64,000 nt of DNA from Escherichia coli (GCF_003790525.1 NZ_CP033635.1); one strand, 5' to 3'; numbered from the stretch's first letter, positions 4,816-21,752 are shown. Program-made: numbers and translations. Notes: generated from the letters alone by a model not told the origin.

Positions 4816-5463
4816 GCGGATGTATTGCCCCAGTTCACGCTGTTCGGCGCGCGGCAGATAAGGCAGTTCACCAATGAGCGGTGCCGGAAGTTTTTTACCG
4901 AGCACATCAATGATTTCCGCATAATGCGCAAGTCCTGGGTTGATTCGGTTAGCCACCCAGCCAATGAGCGGCAGCCCGTCGTTGGCAATCGCCTGAGCTG
5001 TTAGCAGTGCATGGTTAATGCAACCTTCCTGAATACCGACAACCATCAACACCGGCAGTTGTTCCTGCACCACCCATTCAGAGAGCGGACGCAAATCATT
5101 CATCAGACTGCGCCAGCCGCCAGTCCCTTCTACCACGACATGATCGACTTTATCGGTCAGGTTTGCCAGGCCGTTTGAAATGAGGGTGTAATTGATTGGG
5201 CAACTGTGCGCCACGCTACTTTCTTCTTCGCTTAACGCGATAGGATTAACTGCTTCATAAGGCAGTTCGATGGTTGAAACACTCTGCAACACCAGGGCAT
5301 CTTTATTACGCAGCCCTTCGGGTGTCTCTTTGCTCCCCTTCGCTACGGGTTTATATCCCGCAACCGTTTTTCCCTGGGAGGCTAACGCTTGTAGCAATGC
5401 GCGGGAAACCACCGTTTTCCCTACAGAAGTGTCTGTACCGGTAATAAAGAAACGCTTCAGCAT
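4768..5463 (-). CDS. ynfK: dethiobiotin synthetase paralog (BioD2)
   Basis: 231 aa from [17 protein letters not shown] (P-loop); 3' end overlaps clcB 3' end by 48 bp (convergent). Confidence 0.88.
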
Positions 5464-5587: not shown

Positions 5588-6808
5588 TTAACCCTGCAAC
5601 AGACGAATCAACAAAGAACCGTTATACATCGCGTCTTTTACTAGCGCAGCCCCTGCCATCGTACCCTGGTTAGAAAATTGAGTACTCTCAACGCTAATGT
5701 GCTGACTATACGCAGGAAGGGCCTGCTGACGGATGCTGTCCGAGATGACCGGGAAGAGGATATCTGCCGCTTTACTTAACGGTGAGCCAATCAGTATTTT
5801 TTGTGGGTTAAATAAATTCACCATGATGGCAAGAATGCGCCCGACATGCGCGCCCACCCCGGTAATGATGTCTTTTGCCAGTAGATCGCCGCGCAATGCC
5901 GCCTGACACAATGAGTCCACGGTTAACGGCTGTCCATGTAACATCGAGCTCATGGATTGATTGAGACGCAGCTGTGCCAGCTCAAGAATACTGTCCACAC
6001 TGGCGATGGTTTCGAGGCAGCCGTGATTCCCGCAATAACAGCGTTTCCCATACGGGTCGACCTGCGTGTGACCTATTTCCACGAGGCTACTGCTGCCGGC
6101 GTGTAGCAGATGACCATCGGTAATGACGCCCGCCCCCACGTTGTGATCGATAACCACCTGAATCACATCGCGCGCCCCGCGTGAGGCACCAAACAAGGCC
6201 TCTGCCATCGTCCATGCGCTGATATCATGCTGGATATAAACCGGTACGCCGGTATGCTGCTCCAGCGCCTCGCCGAGCGGCATCTCTTTTACATCCTCGT
6301 AGAACGGCATGCGATGTACAATGCCATTTTCCGTATCAATAATTCCCGGCAAGGTTATGGCAATCGAAGTTAGACGCTCAAGTTTTTTCTGGTGGCGGAT
6401 AAAAAACTGATCGATATGGGAAATGATACGATCCAGCAATGGTGAGTCATCTTTTAACGCCAGTTCCTGCGCCTCCTCCACCACCAGTTTGCTGCTCAGA
6501 TCGCGCAGAGCAAGGAAAATCTCCCCGCGACTAATGCGCAGAGAAAGATAGTGCCAGGCTTCAGTTTCAACCACCAGCCCCACCGCCGGACGGCCACGGT
6601 TCCCCGCTTCTTTGATTTCCAGCTCTTGCACCAGGTGTGCTTCGAGCATCTCACGGACAATTTTAGTGATACTGGCAGGAGCCAGTTGCGCCAGACGGGA
6701 AAGATCGATACGCGAGACTGGACCAAGCTGATCAATCAGGCGATATACCGCGCCCGCGTTGGTCTGCTTTATTTGATCAATGTGCCCAGGCTGGTTTTCA
6801 GCAACCAC
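5588..6808 (-). CDS. mlc: ROK-family global repressor Mlc (DgsA)
   Basis: 406-aa ORF, GTG start, N-terminal HTH plus ROK sugar-kinase-like fold with Cys/His zinc motif (CYCGNHGC). Confidence 0.9.
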   Translation of the reverse strand: MVAENQPGHIDQIKQTNAGAVYRLIDQLGPVSRIDLSRLAQLAPASITKIVREMLEAHLVQELEIKEAGNRGRPAVGLVVETEAWHYLSLRISRGEIFLALRDLSSKLVVEEAQELALKDDSPLLDRIISHIDQFFIRHQKKLERLTSIAITLPGIIDTENGIVHRMPFYEDVKEMPLGEALEQHTGVPVYIQHDISAWTMAEALFGASRGARDVIQVVIDHNVGAGVITDGHLLHAGSSSLVEIGHTQVDPYGKRCYCGNHGCLETIASVDSILELAQLRLNQSMSSMLHGQPLTVDSLCQAALRGDLLAKDIITGVGAHVGRILAIMVNLFNPQKILIGSPLSKAADILFPVISDSIRQQALPAYSQHISVESTQFSNQGTMAGAALVKDAMYNGSLLIRLLQG

Positions 6809-11064: not shown

Positions 11065-11394
11065 TCAGGCAAGTTTCACCATGATCATTCCAGCCAACAG
11101 CAAGACCAGGCCAATCCAGCCTTTACGATTTAACCGTTGACCAAACAAGATCCAACCTGCGGCTAACGTGGCGGCAATACCAAACCCGCCCCACAATGCA
11201 TAAGCGACAGACAAGTCGATCCCTTTAACGGCCTGAGAAAGCGCACTAAAGGCAGCCAGCACCGCCGCCAGGGAGAGCAAGCCAAATATTTTGCGACGAA
11301 AGCCGTCAGAAAATTTCAAAAAGACGTTAGCAACGATTTCCAGCACGATTGCCAATGCCAGCCAGGCGGCGTGAACCCATTCAAACTGCGCCAT
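11065..11394 (-). CDS. mdtI: SMR-family spermidine export protein subunit MdtI
   Basis: 109 aa, 4-TM small multidrug resistance fold; overlaps mdtJ 3' end. Confidence 0.88.
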
Positions 11395-11746
11395 GGTTCA
11401 CCTCCAGTTCAGGTTTACGCGCTTTACGAGTACCTGATTTGATCAACACAATCCCGGCGACCAGGGTGGTTAACCCGGCAATTTTCATCAGCGATAAACT
11501 TTCGTCGAATAACAAAACGCTAAACAAGGTAATAAATAAAATACCGATACCTTCCCACAGCGCATAAGCCACGCCTAAGGCGATCTTTTTAACGGCGAAA
11601 GAGAGAAATATATACGACAGAGAAATCATCACCAGCATTAAAATAAAGCCGCCATTTCCCTCACTGACGCTCGCCCATTTCATAGACAGCGTACCGGTAA
11701 TTTCTGTAGCAATAGCCAGACCTAATAAAATCCAATAAATATACAT
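11381..11746 (-). CDS. mdtJ: SMR-family spermidine export protein subunit MdtJ
   Basis: 121 aa, SMR fold, directly upstream of and overlapping mdtI. Confidence 0.88.
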
Positions 11747-12157
11747 TGTCCTTCTCCTGCAAGAGAATTATTTTAATTTTCGCTTAATTCAGCGAAACCA
11801 AAGTAAAGTGGTCAAGCCCCGCGCATAGCGCAAGCTTAAGCAGGAGAAAGGACTAAAGCGCGTTGCGCCAGTGCTGCTCACCTACGAGCAAGATAGTGGA
11901 TGAGGTACGAAGATGGGTAAATGTAGAAAATAACGTCCTGAACAAATTGTCCATAATATTACAATTATCCGCAGTGTTGCTTCTCGTCATCGCGGATGAT
12001 AATTGTCCTCGGTAGTTGAACACGCCTGATTTGTATCATAGCTTAAGAATTAACTCAAAATATTTTCACTTCTTTACCTGAGCGGTTTGATTTTCGTTAT
12101 GATGACGGAGCGAAAAAGACATTATTATTAGCAAAGGAAGAAAAAACGGGGACAAGC

Positions 12158-12294
12158 ATGGCAAAGCCGATCATCACGCTCAATGGCCTAAAAATCGTCA
12201 TTATGTTGGGAATGCTGGTCATTATTCTCTGCGGTATCCGTTTTGCCGCCGAGATCATCGTGCCGTTTATTCTCGCATTATTTATTGCTGTTAT
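12158..12294 (+). pseudogene. tqsA: 5' fragment of tqsA (AI-2 exporter), first ~46 codons; reading frame then runs into element DNA and stops after 7 foreign codons
   Basis: ATG at 12158 encodes [45 protein letters not shown]; the remainder of the gene resumes in frame at 23729. Confidence 0.85.
12286..12294. repeat. attL core (direct repeat 'tgctgttat')
   Basis: Identical 9-mer at 23720-23728; chromosomal tqsA sequence on the left, element-specific sequence on the right. Confidence 0.7.
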
Positions 12295-12365
12295 ATATAA
12301 CTTATTTCGCTTAACTAATTGATTTAATTAAATAATTTGCACTACAAAAAGTGCCAAAAATCGCA

Positions 12366-12391
12366 AATTAACTACACCATTAACTACACCG
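12366..12391. repeat. 26-bp element-end repeat 'aattaactacaccattaactacaccg' (tandem 'ttaactacacc'), candidate integrase arm-type site, left end
   Basis: Exact 26-bp copy at 23567-23592 next to the int start; both copies in direct orientation just inside the element ends. Confidence 0.6.
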
Positions 12392-13466
12392 TTCGGCGCA
12401 CTGTATGAAACAACGTGGAACAAATAGACACAAGCGGCAGGCTATACCGTTATCATTTTTCAGCTATCCGTCATGAAGCTGGTGGATGATCACGGATAAC
12501 CAGGCATCTACAGCGCCTTAAAAAGCTGAACCCGACAAACATTTCTGCTTATCGGGTCCGATCGCTCTTTCTACTCGTGGCAGATGAGTTTACTAGGAAG
12601 GGGGGAACATTGTATCAGGCTATCCCCTTTCTGTGCTGATTCGGCTGGTGAATGATCTACTTGGGGCACTACACTTTTCGGATAGTGCGGGTATCCGGTT
12701 TTCTGCCTCATCGAATTTTAAGCCTTCTGACGGCCTGTATATCATTTCCTGTGGAGTTGCCGCCCTGATAGCGAATACTGCGGCAGCATGTGATTTACCC
12801 CCCGTTCTGTTGATGTTTGATGTGGCTGGTTGATGTGCTGCCATGTTTTCCGCCAATGGTGGAAAAGCCCACCAGCGCAACGCAGGACGCATAAAACCAT
12901 TGCGATGACTCTGGACGCAAAACCACGTTTAACGATGTTTTGCACTGAACCAGAATACTGTTCGTTTTTGTCTCGATGTCCGTACGTATTACGTCCGCAC
13001 CTAATCCGGCATCATGCCCACCAGCGTAACGCATTTTTTTAATTTCGTGGCTGTGCGTCCACCAGCTACGCCGGAATGGGGTATTCCGTTTCAACGGAAC
13101 AGGTATGACGAACATAATCGCACCTTCTCCCGAAAACGGTGCGACCTGCATCATCGAAATGGTGATTCAGCTACTCGGCGATTTTCACCATTCAGAATCT
13201 GGCGGGTGAGTTATCCAGCTTCCACCAATGGGGGATTCTGGAACAATCAACGGGTTACGCCTTATCAGCAAAAAAGCACATCAACTGTAAAGGAAATCGT
13301 TATGGTTGCTGGTGGGCTGCGTCACCATCATGGTGATGATGCTGTCCAGTCAGCCGGAACGGTTGAACAGGGTGGCTATGGGTCACTCTGTTGTGCGTTA
13401 TTTGCGTGATCCTGGTACGGGGTGACTATCTTTCAGATAGTCGGTTGCCTGGTTACACGAAAAAAT

Positions 13467-13775
13467 TTACTTCCTGCGTTTATCCTGCTTTGTATGCCCG
13501 TGCTGAATGCCCCGCAGTGGATCTTCTTTTTTCAGGTCGATCCCCATGTCCGTTAGTGTTTTTGTGGCGGCGGTTCTTATGGCACAAATCAGGTCTCTTT
13601 CCGGTTCCCGGGTTATGGTTGCCTTCCGGATGCATGCCGTTCGTCGTTCCGTTACATACTGACGCGCTTCATCACTTGCCGCCTGTTTCAGTAACTCACC
13701 CCAGCGATTAGCCGCCCGTCGCCATAAACCTTTCGCTTCCAGTTCTTCCGCTTTGTCATCATGCACCATAAGCAT
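13467..13775 (-). CDS. PerC-family-like putative transcriptional activator (copy 2)
   Basis: N-terminal MVHDDKAEELEAKGLWRRAANRWGEL resembles PerC/Pch activators (recalled) and is a paralog of the 17352-17624 ORF; start chosen at an internal Met. Confidence 0.45.
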   Translation of the reverse strand: MLMVHDDKAEELEAKGLWRRAANRWGELLKQAASDEARQYVTERRTACIRKATITREPERDLICAIRTAATKTLTDMGIDLKKEDPLRGIQHGHTKQDKRRK

Positions 13776-13883
13776 AATCCCATTGATACCTGTTAACTCT
13801 GAATGGTTGGTTTCTGTTCTTTTGATAATTTCCCGCATAGCTTATTGTATGACAGTACTGTCCCACAATAAGGAGTTGCACGC

Positions 13884-14174
13884 ATGAGAATGACTAGGCA
13901 CAAAAAACAGATTCTTGAACTCTACAAACCTGAGTATCGCGATTGGGTGCGGGTGGAGGCCGGAGATCCGCCTTTTGATGTTCGTGGTGTGACAGTGCTG
14001 CTCTATGGTTCCGAATATCGGCGATATCACATAGAGGCAACACGAAGGACGCTAAACGCTATGGTTCGTGATAAGTTGCTGGAGCGTGTGAAAGTCCGTG
14101 AGCCACGTTTTGATGTGCGTATTGGTGGCGATGGTGCGCATTGCACGGTAATCCGCTATGGCCTGGTAAGGTAA
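13884..14174 (+). CDS. hypothetical protein (96 aa), only plus-strand gene in the left half of the element
   Basis: ORF with ATG start; internal duplicated motif PPFDVRGV / PRFDVRIGG; followed by the palindrome 'cagaatgtaaatttacattctg'. No family recognised. Confidence 0.4.
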   Translation: MRMTRHKKQILELYKPEYRDWVRVEAGDPPFDVRGVTVLLYGSEYRRYHIEATRRTLNAMVRDKLLERVKVREPRFDVRIGGDGAHCTVIRYGLVR

Positions 14175-14276
14175 GCCATCGGGTAAATCAGATGATTAAA
14201 TCACCAGAATGTAAATTTACATTCTGCCAGCCACCAGCTACCCTCCTCAAAATTGAGGACCCTTTTTATCAACTGG

Positions 14277-14558
14277 TTACCGCCGCAACCGTTCCGGCTT
14301 CTTCCACTGATAAGTGTTTTTCGCGCTCTCCTGATACATCGCCACGCGTCGACGGTATGCCAGCAACTCTAGTACTCTGATTCGTATGTCGCGCATATCC
14401 ACGCCGTTAAGCTCAATACCATCACGGCGCATTACATCAGCAACAACACGCACATAATTTTCGGCGGTCACGCTGTCCGGCTGCGTGGCCTGTTCGTCAT
14501 GCTGCTGGCTGATTCCGGTAACGCGGCGGATTAATCCCAGTAGTTCGACTTCTGTCAT
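14277..14558 (-). CDS. hypothetical protein (~94 aa) immediately downstream of the cos/terS region
   Basis: ORF-track frame 14277..14756; start moved to the internal Met (MTEVELLGL...) so that it does not overlap the cos-like sequence. Function unknown. Confidence 0.4.
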   Translation of the reverse strand: MTEVELLGLIRRVTGISQQHDEQATQPDSVTAENYVRVVADVMRRDGIELNGVDMRDIRIRVLELLAYRRRVAMYQESAKNTYQWKKPERLRR

Positions 14559-14591
14559 TGTGCCCCCATCGCTCTGATAGTCTGGTGTCGT

Positions 14592-14655
14592 CGGGTCCTT
14601 TCCGGCATGTGGACCCGTTACGGGGCGTCGACCTCGCGCGTTTTCACTATTTATG
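14592..14655 (+). other. lambda-like cos site, copy A (cosN plus flanking sequence)
   Basis: 'cgggtcctttccgg...gttacggggcgtcgacctcgcgcgttttcactatttatgaaaattttt' closely parallels the phage lambda cos junction as I recall it ('...acgggtcctttccggtgatccgacaggttacg|gggcggcgacctcgcgggttttcgctatttatgaaaattttccgg'); the 12-mer gggcgtcgacct at 14623-14634 differs from the lambda cohesive end at one base. Confidence 0.75.
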
Positions 14656-14671
14656 AAAATTTTTCGGGATC

Positions 14672-15272: not shown

Positions 15273-15339
15273 AATGTTACCTTAACTGCATGGTTAAATA
15301 TCAATCAAGTGGTGGTGGTGTCACCTTCACGGAAAAACG

Positions 15340-15403
15340 TCATAAATAGCGAAAACGTGCGAGGTCGACGCCCCGTAACGGGTCCACATGCCGGAAAGGA
15401 CCC
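15340..15403 (-). other. lambda-like cos site, copy B (inverted copy of A, cosN plus flank, without the 'ccggacat' array)
   Basis: Reverse complement matches copy A at 62 of 64 positions; lies ~70 bp upstream of the Nu1-like gene start on the same strand. Confidence 0.7.
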
Positions 15404-15404
15404 G

Positions 15405-17634: not shown

Positions 17635-18045
17635 TCAGAACGGAATATCATCACCGTAAGGGTCATCGCCTCCCGCTGGTGGCTGATTACCCTGTGTGCC
17701 TGTGGTTTTGCGTCTGTTCCCGCCAGGACGTGCCGCACGGGCACTGATTACGCTGTCTGCAATAACCTGCCAGCCCTGCCGCGTTTCCCCGTTCTGTCCG
17801 GTCCACTGGCTGACCTGCATCGTGCCGGATACGCTGGCAACGTCGCCTTTTTGATGTTTAGCCAGAAAGTCGGCCTGTTTGCCAAATGCGATGACCGATA
17901 ACCATAACGTCGCCTGTCCGTCCTGTGCCTGGCCGCATGGTAAAGATACCGCCATACGCGCCAGCGTCATCGGTGTACCCTTACTGGTCTGTTTTACCTG
18001 CGGGTCGTCCACCAGCCGCCCGTAAGCTGCTATCTGTGCTGTCAT
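17635..18045 (-). CDS. ssb: single-stranded DNA-binding protein (SSB)
   Basis: 136 aa with OB-fold-like core, Gly/Pro/Gln-rich linker and the acidic C-terminal tail ...DDIPF typical of SSB. Confidence 0.7.
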   Translation of the reverse strand: MTAQIAAYGRLVDDPQVKQTSKGTPMTLARMAVSLPCGQAQDGQATLWLSVIAFGKQADFLAKHQKGDVASVSGTMQVSQWTGQNGETRQGWQVIADSVISARAARPGGNRRKTTGTQGNQPPAGGDDPYGDDIPF

Positions 18046-18284
18046 GCTGTCTGCTCTCCGGTTTTAACGTTGATGGTTGTTACCTGTTCTGCTTCGGCAA
18101 TATCCCGCTCTGTCAGCGTGGCAAAGTTTGCCGCCGTCGTTGTCATGAATGCGCTTATCAGTTCGGGATGTGCTTTCGCGTATCCTTCCCCTGTGTTGCG
18201 GTCGATGATTTTTATCGCCACCCTCAGCCAGTGCTCTGTAAGGTCAATGGCGCGGTGATCTGTCTTTTTGTGGCTTACCTTCAT
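18042..18284 (-). CDS. hypothetical protein (80 aa)
   Basis: ORF in the replication module, overlaps ssb start by 4 nt (coupled); no family recognised. Confidence 0.45.
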   Translation of the reverse strand: MKVSHKKTDHRAIDLTEHWLRVAIKIIDRNTGEGYAKAHPELISAFMTTTAANFATLTERDIAEAEQVTTINVKTGEQTA

Positions 18285-18287
18285 GAT

Positions 18288-18656
18288 TTACTCCAGAGTA
18301 CCGCTATTGCTGCTGTCGTTAACCGGATACCAGGCAAATACCATCGATTCACCACAGTGAACAAACTTCTTATCCGGCAGATAAAGGCACTCGCACATTC
18401 CCTCATCAGGACTATGCGGACTCATGCCCAGCTCACTGGTCAGCACGGGTAAGATTTCGCGGCAGGTGTTCCCCGCACCGAAATAATCAACCTCACAAAG
18501 CGCCCATGCAGCAATCGGGCTGTACCATTCCGTGCCGTCGTCGTCTTTGAACTTAGCCCACCAGCCAGGAAGGGCAGTTGATATGCTCAGTGTTTCAATT
18601 TCAGTGTTCATAAATTTACCTTCGGTATTTTGTCCTGCTGTTCGATTTTTATTCAT
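18288..18656 (-). CDS. hypothetical protein (122 aa or shorter)
   Basis: ORF directly downstream of the iteron region; Cys-containing; no family recognised. Confidence 0.45.
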   Translation of the reverse strand: MNKNRTAGQNTEGKFMNTEIETLSISTALPGWWAKFKDDDGTEWYSPIAAWALCEVDYFGAGNTCREILPVLTSELGMSPHSPDEGMCECLYLPDKKFVHCGESMVFAWYPVNDSSNSGTLE

Positions 18657-18860
18657 TGCTCACCATCTCTCACTTTTACTACTCACTTTTTAAAGCGTCT
18701 CGCTTCGTCTCACTTGAGATTTTTGTGTTTTGTATGTGCATGTTTCATAAGTGTTTTTTCACTGCTCACTTTTGAGCATGTATACAGGTGAGAAAGTGAG
18801 TAATTGTGTTAATATTTTGTAAAAACCTCACCATTACTCACTTTTACTACTCACTTTTTA
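18657..18860. repeat. iteron array, candidate replication origin ('ctcactttt' repeated ~7 times, one inverted, around an AT-rich core)
   Basis: Copies at 18669, 18682, 18709 (variant), 18765, 18793 (inverted), 18837 and 18850; 'ctcacttttactactcacttttta' occurs twice; lies immediately 3' of the rep ATPase gene. Confidence 0.6.
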
Positions 18861-20264
18861 CAGTGGTCCTACATCATCACCATCAATGTAAATCACGGCG
18901 TCTTTTTCCAGTTTGGCTAACCATCGCCGCATATTTTTCACGTCATACCCAAGCCGTTTCATGTCATCACGTAACAGCGGGATCGTGCACTTGTCGCCGT
19001 TCTGTGTGCGTGAACGGATGCACCCCCATAGCGCGGTATGGTTTTCCGTCTTGTTGCCTGCCTCCTCGATGCGCTCCAGTTCAGCAGGGGCGCGGGGAAC
19101 GTCAATCACCACCATGGACACAATTTCTTCGCCATCTGTATCGGTGAACACCTCCACGCTTTTAAGGTCGTATGCACTCTCTTTTGGCTCCTCTGCGTCC
19201 TTCATCTTCGTACACGCCGCAACCAGTGCTGTAACGTCTGAATTTTCCCTGCTGATTCGGTACTCTGCATCAAGCGCGGCACGGAATGCACTGGAACCAC
19301 GCGCCCCCTTTGTTTCATCCTTGCCGGAATGGTGAACCACCAGCACCGTGGCCCCTGTGGCCTGCTTTATCGCGTCACACCCCTGGATAAATGCGCCCAT
19401 ATCACGGGAATCATTTTCATCATTCCCACCAAAGCAACGGGCCAGCGTGTCGATCACAATCAGCCGCACATTTTCGCCCGTTCTGCTCTTAACAAGTCCG
19501 GCAGTCCTGATAACCTGCTCCACATAGTCAGGCGATGCAGGGAAAACAGGCGCGTTAATGATGCACAAATCTGTAACCACCTTGTCGTGGGTTATCTCCC
19601 ACGCCTTAACGCGGCGTTTTACGCCCATGCTGCCTTCACCAGCGATATAGATAACCGCACCCTTACTTACCCTGCGGCCTCCCCATGCCATACCTGTGGC
19701 AACATGGCACGACCAGGAAATGGCGAGGAACGATTTATAAGAACCGCTGGCCCCGTAGGTGCTGCATAATGACTCAGCCGGAATAAGCCCCTTAATGACG
19801 TAGCTTTGCTGCGCATCGAATCCCTCAGAACCCCATGAGATGGGAAGTGTGATTTTTCGCTTTCCGCCATTCATGACCAGGCTTTCCCCTCTCTCCCATG
19901 TTTCCCGTAGTCGTGGTAGCTGGTCGCTCCAGTCCTCCAGCAGTTCGAAATTTTCAGAAAGTAGCCGCGCCTCCTGGACTCCGGCGATCGCCAGTTTTGT
20001 GGCAATGGTCAGCATCTGCATATCGTCCAGGTTTCCGGCGCGTATGACCTTTACCCTGTATCGTCCTTCATCAACAATCTGTAAGTTGTCCAGTTCGCTT
20101 AACTGATAACGGCCCAGATAAACCGGAGGGATGGGATCGCCTGCTTTTTTGGCCTGTGCAATCATGTAATGTTCTGCAAAGGAGTGAGCATTATCACCCG
20201 CAAAAATAACCGCCTCAGTGTGTTTATCTTTCGGTAACAGTTTTACGTTCGGTGCAAGTTTCAT
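18858..20264 (-). CDS. replication protein with RecA-like P-loop ATPase domain (RepA/DnaB-like, satellite pri-rep type)
   Basis: 468 aa; Walker A YGASGSYKS, Walker B-like RLIVIDTL, HHSGK motif; C-terminal region possibly DNA-binding; iterons directly downstream. Confidence 0.65.
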   Translation of the reverse strand: MKLAPNVKLLPKDKHTEAVIFAGDNAHSFAEHYMIAQAKKAGDPIPPVYLGRYQLSELDNLQIVDEGRYRVKVIRAGNLDDMQMLTIATKLAIAGVQEARLLSENFELLEDWSDQLPRLRETWERGESLVMNGGKRKITLPISWGSEGFDAQQSYVIKGLIPAESLCSTYGASGSYKSFLAISWSCHVATGMAWGGRRVSKGAVIYIAGEGSMGVKRRVKAWEITHDKVVTDLCIINAPVFPASPDYVEQVIRTAGLVKSRTGENVRLIVIDTLARCFGGNDENDSRDMGAFIQGCDAIKQATGATVLVVHHSGKDETKGARGSSAFRAALDAEYRISRENSDVTALVAACTKMKDAEEPKESAYDLKSVEVFTDTDGEEIVSMVVIDVPRAPAELERIEEAGNKTENHTALWGCIRSRTQNGDKCTIPLLRDDMKRLGYDVKNMRRWLAKLEKDAVIYIDGDDVGPL

Positions 20265-21302: not shown

Positions 21303-21426
21303 ATGACTGAAAAGCAGACCGATAACAAACTTTCTCTACCAGAGAATAAACCAGCAGGCTTCTTACCAAGAAAAATCCTTGATGAGATCAAACGCCGCCA
21401 GCGCCGCAAGGCCAAAGAGCAGGAAT
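21303..21426 (+). CDS. possible small protein (41 aa, Lys/Arg-rich C-terminus)
   Basis: ATG 4 nt after the preceding stop; MTEKQTDNKLSLPENKPAGFLPRKILDEIKRRQRRKAKEQE; followed by a strong hairpin terminator. Too short for the ORF track. Confidence 0.25.
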
Positions 21427-21460
21427 AGCCCACCAGCAAGCCAGCACACTGATCACATTG

Positions 21461-21490
21461 GCCACCGTGACAGGTGGCCTTTTCTTTGCC
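21461..21490 (+). terminator. rho-independent terminator (ggccaccgtgacaggtggcc + T-rich tract)
   Basis: Perfect 7-bp stem with 6-nt loop followed by ttttctttg, just after the 41-codon ORF. Confidence 0.55.
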
Positions 21491-21752
21491 CGTTATCCGG
21501 CAATTGTGGCGCTTCGCCACACGGTTGATATAATTCCCCTGCTCAGATTCATTTTTTGCGCGGCAGGTAAATTGTTCAGAAAGGCGGCTCCTTATCGGGG
21601 CCGCTTTTTTTATGTCTGAAAAACCGCGATTTTGTTGTTTTTCAGTTTCACCAGGCCGAACGAAGCCCCGCCCATGTTCGGGCGTATATCCAGTCTTCAT
21701 GGTTAAATCTCTGTATTAGTGGATGGGTGGCGGCTGTGTGCCGCCAGTCTTT

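Follow-up and report, generated by a model that had tools for sequence, protein, structure and literature searches.

The 3' end of an EcCICFT073-type phage satellite in Escherichia coli: a probable junction of the packaging core with a p96/PerC cargo cassette

Introduction

The closest described system is the EcCICFT073 type of PICI, in which the helper small terminase is bound by Rpp and packaging is redirected to the island's own cos (PMC6739421; PMC6092414). Two functional cos sites are described for this type (PMC6092414; PMC6739421), and its Rpp protein, RppA, has 144 residues (PMC6739421). For two other genes of the island, c1499 and c1500, no phenotype is reported in the 2018 paper, though the island is packaged in phage-sized capsids. 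Downstream of rppA, c1505 was cloned in pBAD18 (pJP2220), lambda inhibition was found from c1503 (rppA) only, and the marked island used in transfer assays carries c1504-07::cat (PMC6739421). The 3' end of PICIs is a recognised region for accessory and immune genes (PMC11364771).

The window analysed is a stretch of 64,000 nucleotides (64 kb) from E. coli (GCF_003790525.1, NZ_CP033635.1), where two small genes, p96 on the plus strand and p93 on the minus strand, converge on a short gap containing palindromes. The initial annotation had presented this pair as an independently regulated module. Presented in that way the region matters little, as it is the core/cargo boundary of a well-studied phage satellite type. 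We consider it fairly probable that the core of an EcCICFT073-type cos PICI here meets a cargo cassette, which forms the 3' end of the island.

Results and Discussion

The island and its packaging region

The 64-kb window is chromosomal E. coli DNA and contains an EcCICFT073-type cos PICI located at about 12.3-24 kb and inserted in tqsA. In strain CM2, whose locus is 99.9% identical to the window, the island annotated by PGAP has ~11.7 kb, splits tqsA and contains genes for an integrase, an HTH regulator, an Icd-like protein, a DUF4222 protein, a RepA helicase, an SSB, a PerC-family protein, a major capsid protein, a head decoration protein, three hypothetical proteins and a second PerC. The integrase, the regulator, the RepA helicase/SSB replicon, a size in the range of about 10-15 kb and its own attachment site are those of the EcCICFT073 type, which is characterised by an AlpA-type regulator, a primase/helicase replicon and two lambda-like cosQ/cosN sites combined with a non-lambda cosB. 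The rpp gene (redirecting phage packaging; 14838..15272, minus strand) encodes a protein with the same length as RppA, 144 aa, and matches RppC (PDB 6hlk, E 4e-32). Two cosQ/cosN copies, which look lambda-like from their sequence, stand in opposite orientations on either side of rpp, both pointing towards it (~14592-14669 and ~15327-15404), with a mutual identity of 91%. Since the island shows both the RppC match and two inverted lambda-like cos copies around rpp, it was assigned to the EcCICFT073 type. In cos copy A (14593..14634, plus strand), cosQ is GGGTCCT at 14593-14599 and the cohesive-end segment is at 14623-14634, a reading made by comparison with the lambda cos sequence. This copy corresponds to the EcCICFT073 cos downstream of rppA.

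The gene order of the window island is that of EcCICFT073: rppA (c1503), cos, c1505 and attR, with two inverted lambda-like cos sites around rpp and p93 or c1505 adjoining cosQ. The segment 14267-15493, which covers rpp, both cos sites and p93, shows 94% DNA identity to the CFT073 island. The difference is downstream, where CFT073 has neither p96 nor a second PerC gene and shows three TAAC-box repeat units, described below, followed by the attachment site.

The stretch from cos copy A to rpp contains the repeats ATGTCCGG / CCGGACAT, at about 14673, 14732 and 14763, which have the look of candidate R-elements of a cosB recognised by the Rpp-TerS complex. The window segment 15503-16905 contains the homologues of the lambda-type major capsid protein and head decoration protein, which are c1499 and c1500 in EcCICFT073.

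The p93 gene

The p93 gene (14277..14558, minus strand) is annotated by PGAP as a hypothetical protein and encodes 93 aa plus the stop codon; the initial annotation had given it 94 aa. It was correctly placed just beyond cos copy A, as cosQ is 34 nt from the start of the ORF. Its product is small, basic (pI 9.6) and helical by prediction. The only family matched is phrog_1561 (E 1e-54), which is annotated as of unknown function, and searches with the protein and its profile against Pfam, NCBIfam, PADLOC and PDB sequences gave no meaningful match. Neither did p93 match anything in the phage collection, nor did its profile find a relative in a search of one genome per species. The family appears to be largely confined to Escherichia islands, a distribution that the choice of representative genomes could also explain. 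The AF2 model shows three helices with low confidence (pLDDT 65.8), and a fold search with it gave no match at E < 4.

DNA matching p93 was found in 1848 of the 5426 complete E. coli genomes, and its proteins form 968 clusters at 90% identity, nearly all of exactly 93 aa. Most of the 80 IMG/VR loci examined contain p93 directly after rpp plus cos, or 20-260 nt past a 180-aa PICI terS; in about 15 loci neither rpp nor terS was detected and about six more gave capsid-module hits only. In CFT073, O55:H7 and clone D i14, p93 is the last gene before the attachment site. Across 44 distinct alleles its dN/dS is 0.23, versus 1.6 in two shifted frames; therefore it is the protein that is constrained, not merely the DNA adjoining cosQ. 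Thus, p93 is conserved and closes the rightward packaging region of the PICI, whose order is capsid, decoration protein, rpp, cos and then p93.

Published primers mapped onto CFT073 show that the p93 homologue in this strain is the old ORF c1505, and that the c1504-07::cat deletion (~18104-19002 in our coordinates of the CFT073 locus) removes both the p93 homologue and the adjacent cos. Since the island without c1505 is competent for transfer, and c1505 gave no lambda inhibition, p93 is dispensable in the laboratory: it is needed neither for lambda/phi80 transfer nor for lambda interference. Present in about one third of the complete E. coli genomes, p93 is kept by purifying selection and ends the packaging region by cosQ. 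We also considered whether p93 might be RgdR, an OI-51 regulator that every E. coli PICI is said to carry, and rejected this, because RgdR is ECs1581/c1493 and has 99 aa; its counterpart in the island is the DUF4222 gene upstream of the helicase.

The p96 gene and its PerC cassette

The p96 gene (13884..14174, plus strand), also a PGAP hypothetical protein, does converge on p93 as had been described, and encodes a small basic protein of 96 aa (pI 10.1). It is nearly, not strictly, the only plus-strand gene in the left half of the island, as PGAP annotates an extra plus-strand ORF of 67 aa at about 13206-13409. The FDVR motif reported as duplicated in p96 is indeed present at residues 31-34 and 76-79; the second copy is found only in close relatives, so that it is not a conserved repeat. 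Divergent from p96 is a PerC-family gene (13467..13838, minus strand; Pfam PerC, E 8e-23), for which PGAP gives a start at 13769.

The distribution of p96 is much narrower than that of p93. The pair is found in about 48 of the 5426 E. coli genomes (48 hold most of 13840-14600) and p96 is present in six of the 80 IMG/VR loci with p93. In all six, the same PerC gene, 95-99% identical, is located divergently behind p96. Therefore, the unit inherited in close relatives is PerC with p96, not p96 with p93, and p96 is a rare cargo gene in an accessory cassette of roughly 1 kb with a divergent PerC. On islands of this kind, PerC homologues can influence how virulence genes are expressed, and p96 with PerC may change the expression of host or island genes.

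Run exhaustively against 1.84 billion representatives, a HMMER search with p96 gave 50 proteins, three of which, the long repetitive proteins P0138, P0143 and P0152, were rejected as spurious matches to a VERVTVREPDGDDAIGGD repeat. Family members range from 50 to 155 aa, some of them being truncated or frameshifted fragments, with the consensus MRMTxRKKxIL...GxPPFDVSGVAYLL...ESTRRTLEAMVxDGLLERV...VxRYGLPG and a p96 dN/dS of 0.06-0.29. The profile and structure searches called for by the initial annotation gave a winged helix for p96, no fold match for p93, and no toxin, antitoxin or defence family for either. The predicted structure of p96 shows a winged helix-turn-helix fold, with 12-21% sequence identity to its structural matches. 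There is no match to p96 in Pfam or NCBIfam, so it belongs to no curated family (ArsR, MarR, PadR, Fur and others); its relatives show only sub-threshold matches to AbiEi_4 and HVO_A0114. Searches of PDB sequences with the protein and its profile gave nothing meaningful, a match to a SAKe designer protein being rejected as a repeat artefact. Compared with the ArsR, MarR and Fur winged-helix repressors, the p96 model shows neither family membership, nor a ligand or metal site, nor dimerisation helices outside the predicted winged helix. On this model, p96 is most likely a winged-helix protein and a small transcription regulator.

Relatives of p96 are found in several contexts. The only match in the phage collection, with 42% identity, is in the early region of a Klebsiella phage; of the others, one has a PerC gene nearby in a second E. 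coli island, one adjoins a Fic/Phd pair, and one is located 3'-terminally in a PICI of a different type, where the gene again faces a DUF1441-terS operon. One island (L005) contains two p96 paralogues, of 123 aa (4877-5248) and 100 aa (6043-6345). Both are preceded by a variant of the leader palindrome, different for the two genes, and a PerC pseudogene is divergent from the first, like PerC from p96 in the window. Thus, p96 represents an unnamed family of small, predicted winged-helix cargo proteins in satellites and phages, with a characteristic palindromic leader.

In a 40-kb contig (L089, Logan ERR11507397), a member of the p96 family ends a PICI-like element with a D5-type primase, a protease-capsid fusion and DUF1441, which directly adjoins genes for a 373-aa GpA_nuclease (large terminase) and a portal protein. 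The element resembles the helper-embedded satellites reported in PMC10111431. A 60-aa ORF after its DUF1441 gene was considered as a p93 relative and rejected as unrelated.

The leader palindrome of p96

Upstream of p96 there is a 32-nt inverted repeat, CTTATTGTATGACAGTACTGTCCCACAATAAG (13841..13872, plus strand; RNA fold -15.5 kcal/mol), whose 3' arm overlaps the p96 Shine-Dalgarno. Leader palindromes were found in five genes of the p96 family: at 13841-13872 in the window, at 4836-4868 and 6003-6035 in L005, at 5001-5033 in L007 and at 3957-3989 in L089. The outer arms are kept in all five, and the inner stems differ and stay complementary (GACAG/CTGTC, GATAG/CTATC, GAGA/TCTC and GATA/TATC). 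In more distant relatives (L007), similarity begins exactly at the leader palindrome. A scan for sigma-70-like promoters found no site for p96 or p93. The leader palindrome could serve as an operator to which a dimeric winged-helix protein binds, or else form a hairpin in the RNA that masks the ribosome-binding site, and p96 expression is probably controlled via this palindromic leader over its ribosome-binding site. It is this conserved leader that hints at sequence-specific DNA binding and promoter control by p96.

The gap palindromes

The gap between p96 and p93 has 102 nt. The initial annotation had placed two perfect palindromes in it, and only the first is perfect. Palindrome 1 (CAGAATGTAAATTTACATTCTG, 14205..14226, 22 nt), in the 3' region of the p96 cassette, exceeds in length every other perfect palindrome of the 64-kb window, with an arm of 11 nt versus a maximum of 10 nt in 30 shuffles. 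Among the loci examined it was found in exactly the eight with p96, and therefore it is part of the 3' end of the p96 cassette. Searching the 5426 genomes, palindrome 1 or the intergenic region was found in 49, about 20 of which have only the palindrome-1 part in common. Its stem is AT-rich and failed the terminator scan on both strands; on the minus strand it is followed by the U-rich stretch GUGAUUUAAUCAUCUGAUUU.

Palindrome 2 (cctcaaaattgagg / TCCTCAAAATTGAGGA, then CCCTTTTTAT; 14244..14269, plus strand) is an imperfect inverted repeat at 14244-14259, which folds with a 6-bp stem (TCCTCA/TGAGGA) and a 4-nt loop. The terminator scan matched it on the plus strand, and on the minus strand the T-run is absent. 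The fold z-scores of the gap region are -3.9 and -3.0 on the two strands. The window contains 78 inverted repeats of the size of palindrome 2, which alone is not beyond chance and is significant only as a member of a repeat family. Homology to the islands without p96 breaks at 14267, 10 nt past the p93 stop codon, so palindrome 2 is beyond the shared block. Similar palindromes follow p93 in these islands too; therefore they are not an insulator evolved for the p96/p93 pair.

The preferred reading attributes these palindromes to transcription. The p93 gene would end the long minus-strand transcription unit of the island, and p96 would be an inward-facing cargo gene with its own control region, its leader acting either through self-repression at an operator or as an RNA hairpin masking the ribosome-binding site. 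Palindrome 2 with the CCCTTTTTAT T-run most likely ends the p96 transcript. For ending or stabilising the p93 transcript the best candidate is palindrome 1, with the U-rich stretch that follows it on the other strand, and both palindromes together would keep the two converging transcription units apart. We infer termination at the gap palindromes, as well as the promoters and 3' ends. Palindrome 2 is like an intrinsic (Rho-independent) terminator, with its 6-bp stem followed by CCCTTTTTAT on the p96 strand and an A-run on the other side; palindrome 1 and most of the related units differ in having no clear T-run, and the units add a conserved 5' box which terminators do not need. The independent regulation proposed for the pair survives in part: p96 looks like a separately transcribed unit, because it has its own leader and ribosome-binding site, a terminator-like hairpin with a T-run, an orientation opposite to the long operon and a place in an accessory cassette, and the pair does not.

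The TAAC-box repeat units

Palindrome 2 is the hairpin of a repeat unit of about 40 nt, which shows the box TAAC-YNR-YTGA-WATT... and, about 20 nt on, a hairpin with a variable stem and kept pairing. Unit 1 (14240..14279, minus strand) begins with the p93 TAA stop codon (TAACCAGTTGAT...). Unit 2 (TAACCCGTTGATTGTTCCAGAATCCCCCATTGGTGGA; 13215..13264, minus strand) is at the far cassette boundary and shows 90% identity to 18799-18848 of the CFT073 locus, which is the third TAAC-box unit of that island and to which it is homologous. Across many IMG/VR loci, 131 box motifs were found in 81.6 kb downstream of p93 (1.61 per kb) versus nine in 311 kb upstream (0.03 per kb), an enrichment of about 50-fold, and all the units downstream of p93 are in the p93 orientation. 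We did not find these repeat units described in the literature on these islands.

The hairpin starts 20-25 nt after TAAC, and its stems are of at least eight kinds, among them CCTCAA/TTGAGG, GCGCAA/TTGCGC, CAGCC/GGCTG, CCCCCA/TGGGGG, CCTGCA/TGCAGG, TTCGCC/GGCGAA and TGCAAA/TTTGCA. An effective stem of at least 5 bp is present in two thirds of the units versus 11% of shuffled tails. In an ungapped alignment of 13 units, chosen partly by eye in a way that favours structure, 85.9% of the cells are paired versus 60.8% in shuffles, none of 500 reaching as high a value; in five of the six pairs both sides vary, and pairing falls to 31-54% when the partner is shifted along. RNAalifold on the mixed unit alignment found no structure, odd and even loops being out of register, and Rfam gave no match over the window segment 12000-15600. 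The T-run after the units is mostly poor, with a mean of 3.1 of 8 T on one strand and 1.5 on the other. The strongly conserved TAAC box is not accounted for by termination.

These properties bear on another reading, in which the units and palindromes are DNA-level recombination junctions. Cargo would enter, leave or be swapped at the TAAC box and hairpin, through either a recombinase that recognises structure or homologous exchange among the repeated units. The gap palindromes would then be scars or sites of the p96/PerC cassette insertion, not transcription signals. Compared with CFT073, the cassette extends from just after the unit 1 box (14267) to where the next unit starts (13264), the units at 14279 and 13257 of the window bracketing it. 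CFT073 itself shows three units in tandem after c1505 with no cargo between them (18653-18850), and in another locus (L070) units at +1244/+1296 and +2501 are found before and after the same p96/PerC cassette, a 193-aa ORF ending in the TAA of the first one. The hairpins of the 13 aligned units are complementary by Watson-Crick pairs only, with no G-U pairs, which fits a DNA-level role as well as an RNA role, and the box is conserved far beyond the needs of a terminator tail. Against this, no dedicated recombinase is evident besides the island integrase, plain homologous recombination between any repeats would give the same pattern, and the units begin at sense-strand stop codons (those of p93 and the 193-aa ORF), which fits gene-end modules. 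We hold the recombination reading to be rather doubtful as an alternative to termination, with which it is not mutually exclusive.

The resemblance of the units to integron attC sites and to REP/BIME elements concerns variable hairpins with kept pairing, a single orientation after stop codons and the bracketing of cargo. The island differs from an integron array: no integron integrase is annotated in it, and its hairpins are not spanned by paired RYYYAAC/GTTRRRY cores, the box being an adjacent TAAC...GTTGAT. With about 40 nt, a location confined to PICI ends and no Rfam match, the units share with attC and REP/BIME a likeness of form only. It is unlikely that the TAAC-box/hairpin units at the 3' end of Escherichia PICIs are a system dedicated to the exchange of cassettes; if they were, cargo such as p96/PerC regulators and defence genes would be inserted and swapped there, making these satellites integron-like collectors. 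Any role in cargo exchange is conjectural, and through it the units with covarying hairpins may explain exchange in the 3' accessory region.

Two observations concern other arrangements downstream of p93. In the group of L004 and L013, a run of GTGACA-type repeats (ccgtgacggagagtgacacacagtgacaaaaaagacgg) replaces the TAAC-box units directly after p93, within the first ~60 nt past its stop codon. A related island, of strain VTB97432v, shows about 2.2 kb (11159-13373 of its locus) without annotated genes between p93 and a DUF1441 terS-like gene.

Operator and module readings

The palindromes might also be protein-binding operators, with p96 binding both the leader and palindrome 1 and so looping its own gene or controlling read-through. 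This would agree with palindrome 1 being a perfect 22-bp dyad found only with p96, with the DNA-binding-type fold predicted for p96, and with a weak AWTGT element, read by eye, common to the leader and palindrome 1. However, half-site spacing is unequal between the leader and palindrome 1, and the p96 paralogue of L005 that is 81% identical keeps its leader almost unchanged, yet shows a GAGTTGCAAATCTGCAACTC palindrome where palindrome 1 stands. The GAGTTGCAAATCTGCAACTC palindrome is also found at island ends without p96, and both facts argue against p96 binding palindrome 1. We regard this operator reading as quite improbable. For the leader, regulation by the p96 protein would remain one of the two routes given above under the preferred reading of separate transcription units.

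That p93 and p96 form a two-gene functional module, toxin-antitoxin or anti-phage, is highly improbable: both proteins are small, basic and conserved and lie in a region where PICIs carry defence cargo, but the genes are convergent and not co-transcribed, they are not co-inherited (1848 genomes with p93 versus about 48 with the pair; six of 80 loci), PADLOC gave zero matches to them and Pfam, NCBIfam and PHROGs no functional match, the c1505 homologue alone gave no lambda inhibition (PMC6739421), and the p96 family is present without p93 in the Klebsiella phage and other islands.

Other features of the island

Near the integrase end, the plus strand contains a gene encoding a HicB-family antitoxin and a 41-aa ORF (~21400-21750 in the window; 18023-18346 in the CM2 locus, where no HicA partner is annotated). 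At the opposite end, by the attachment site, the segment 12310-12434 of the window is 94% identical to 19060-19176 of the CFT073 locus, despite the different integration sites of the islands, which are tqsA for the window island and a position beside phoQ for that of CFT073.
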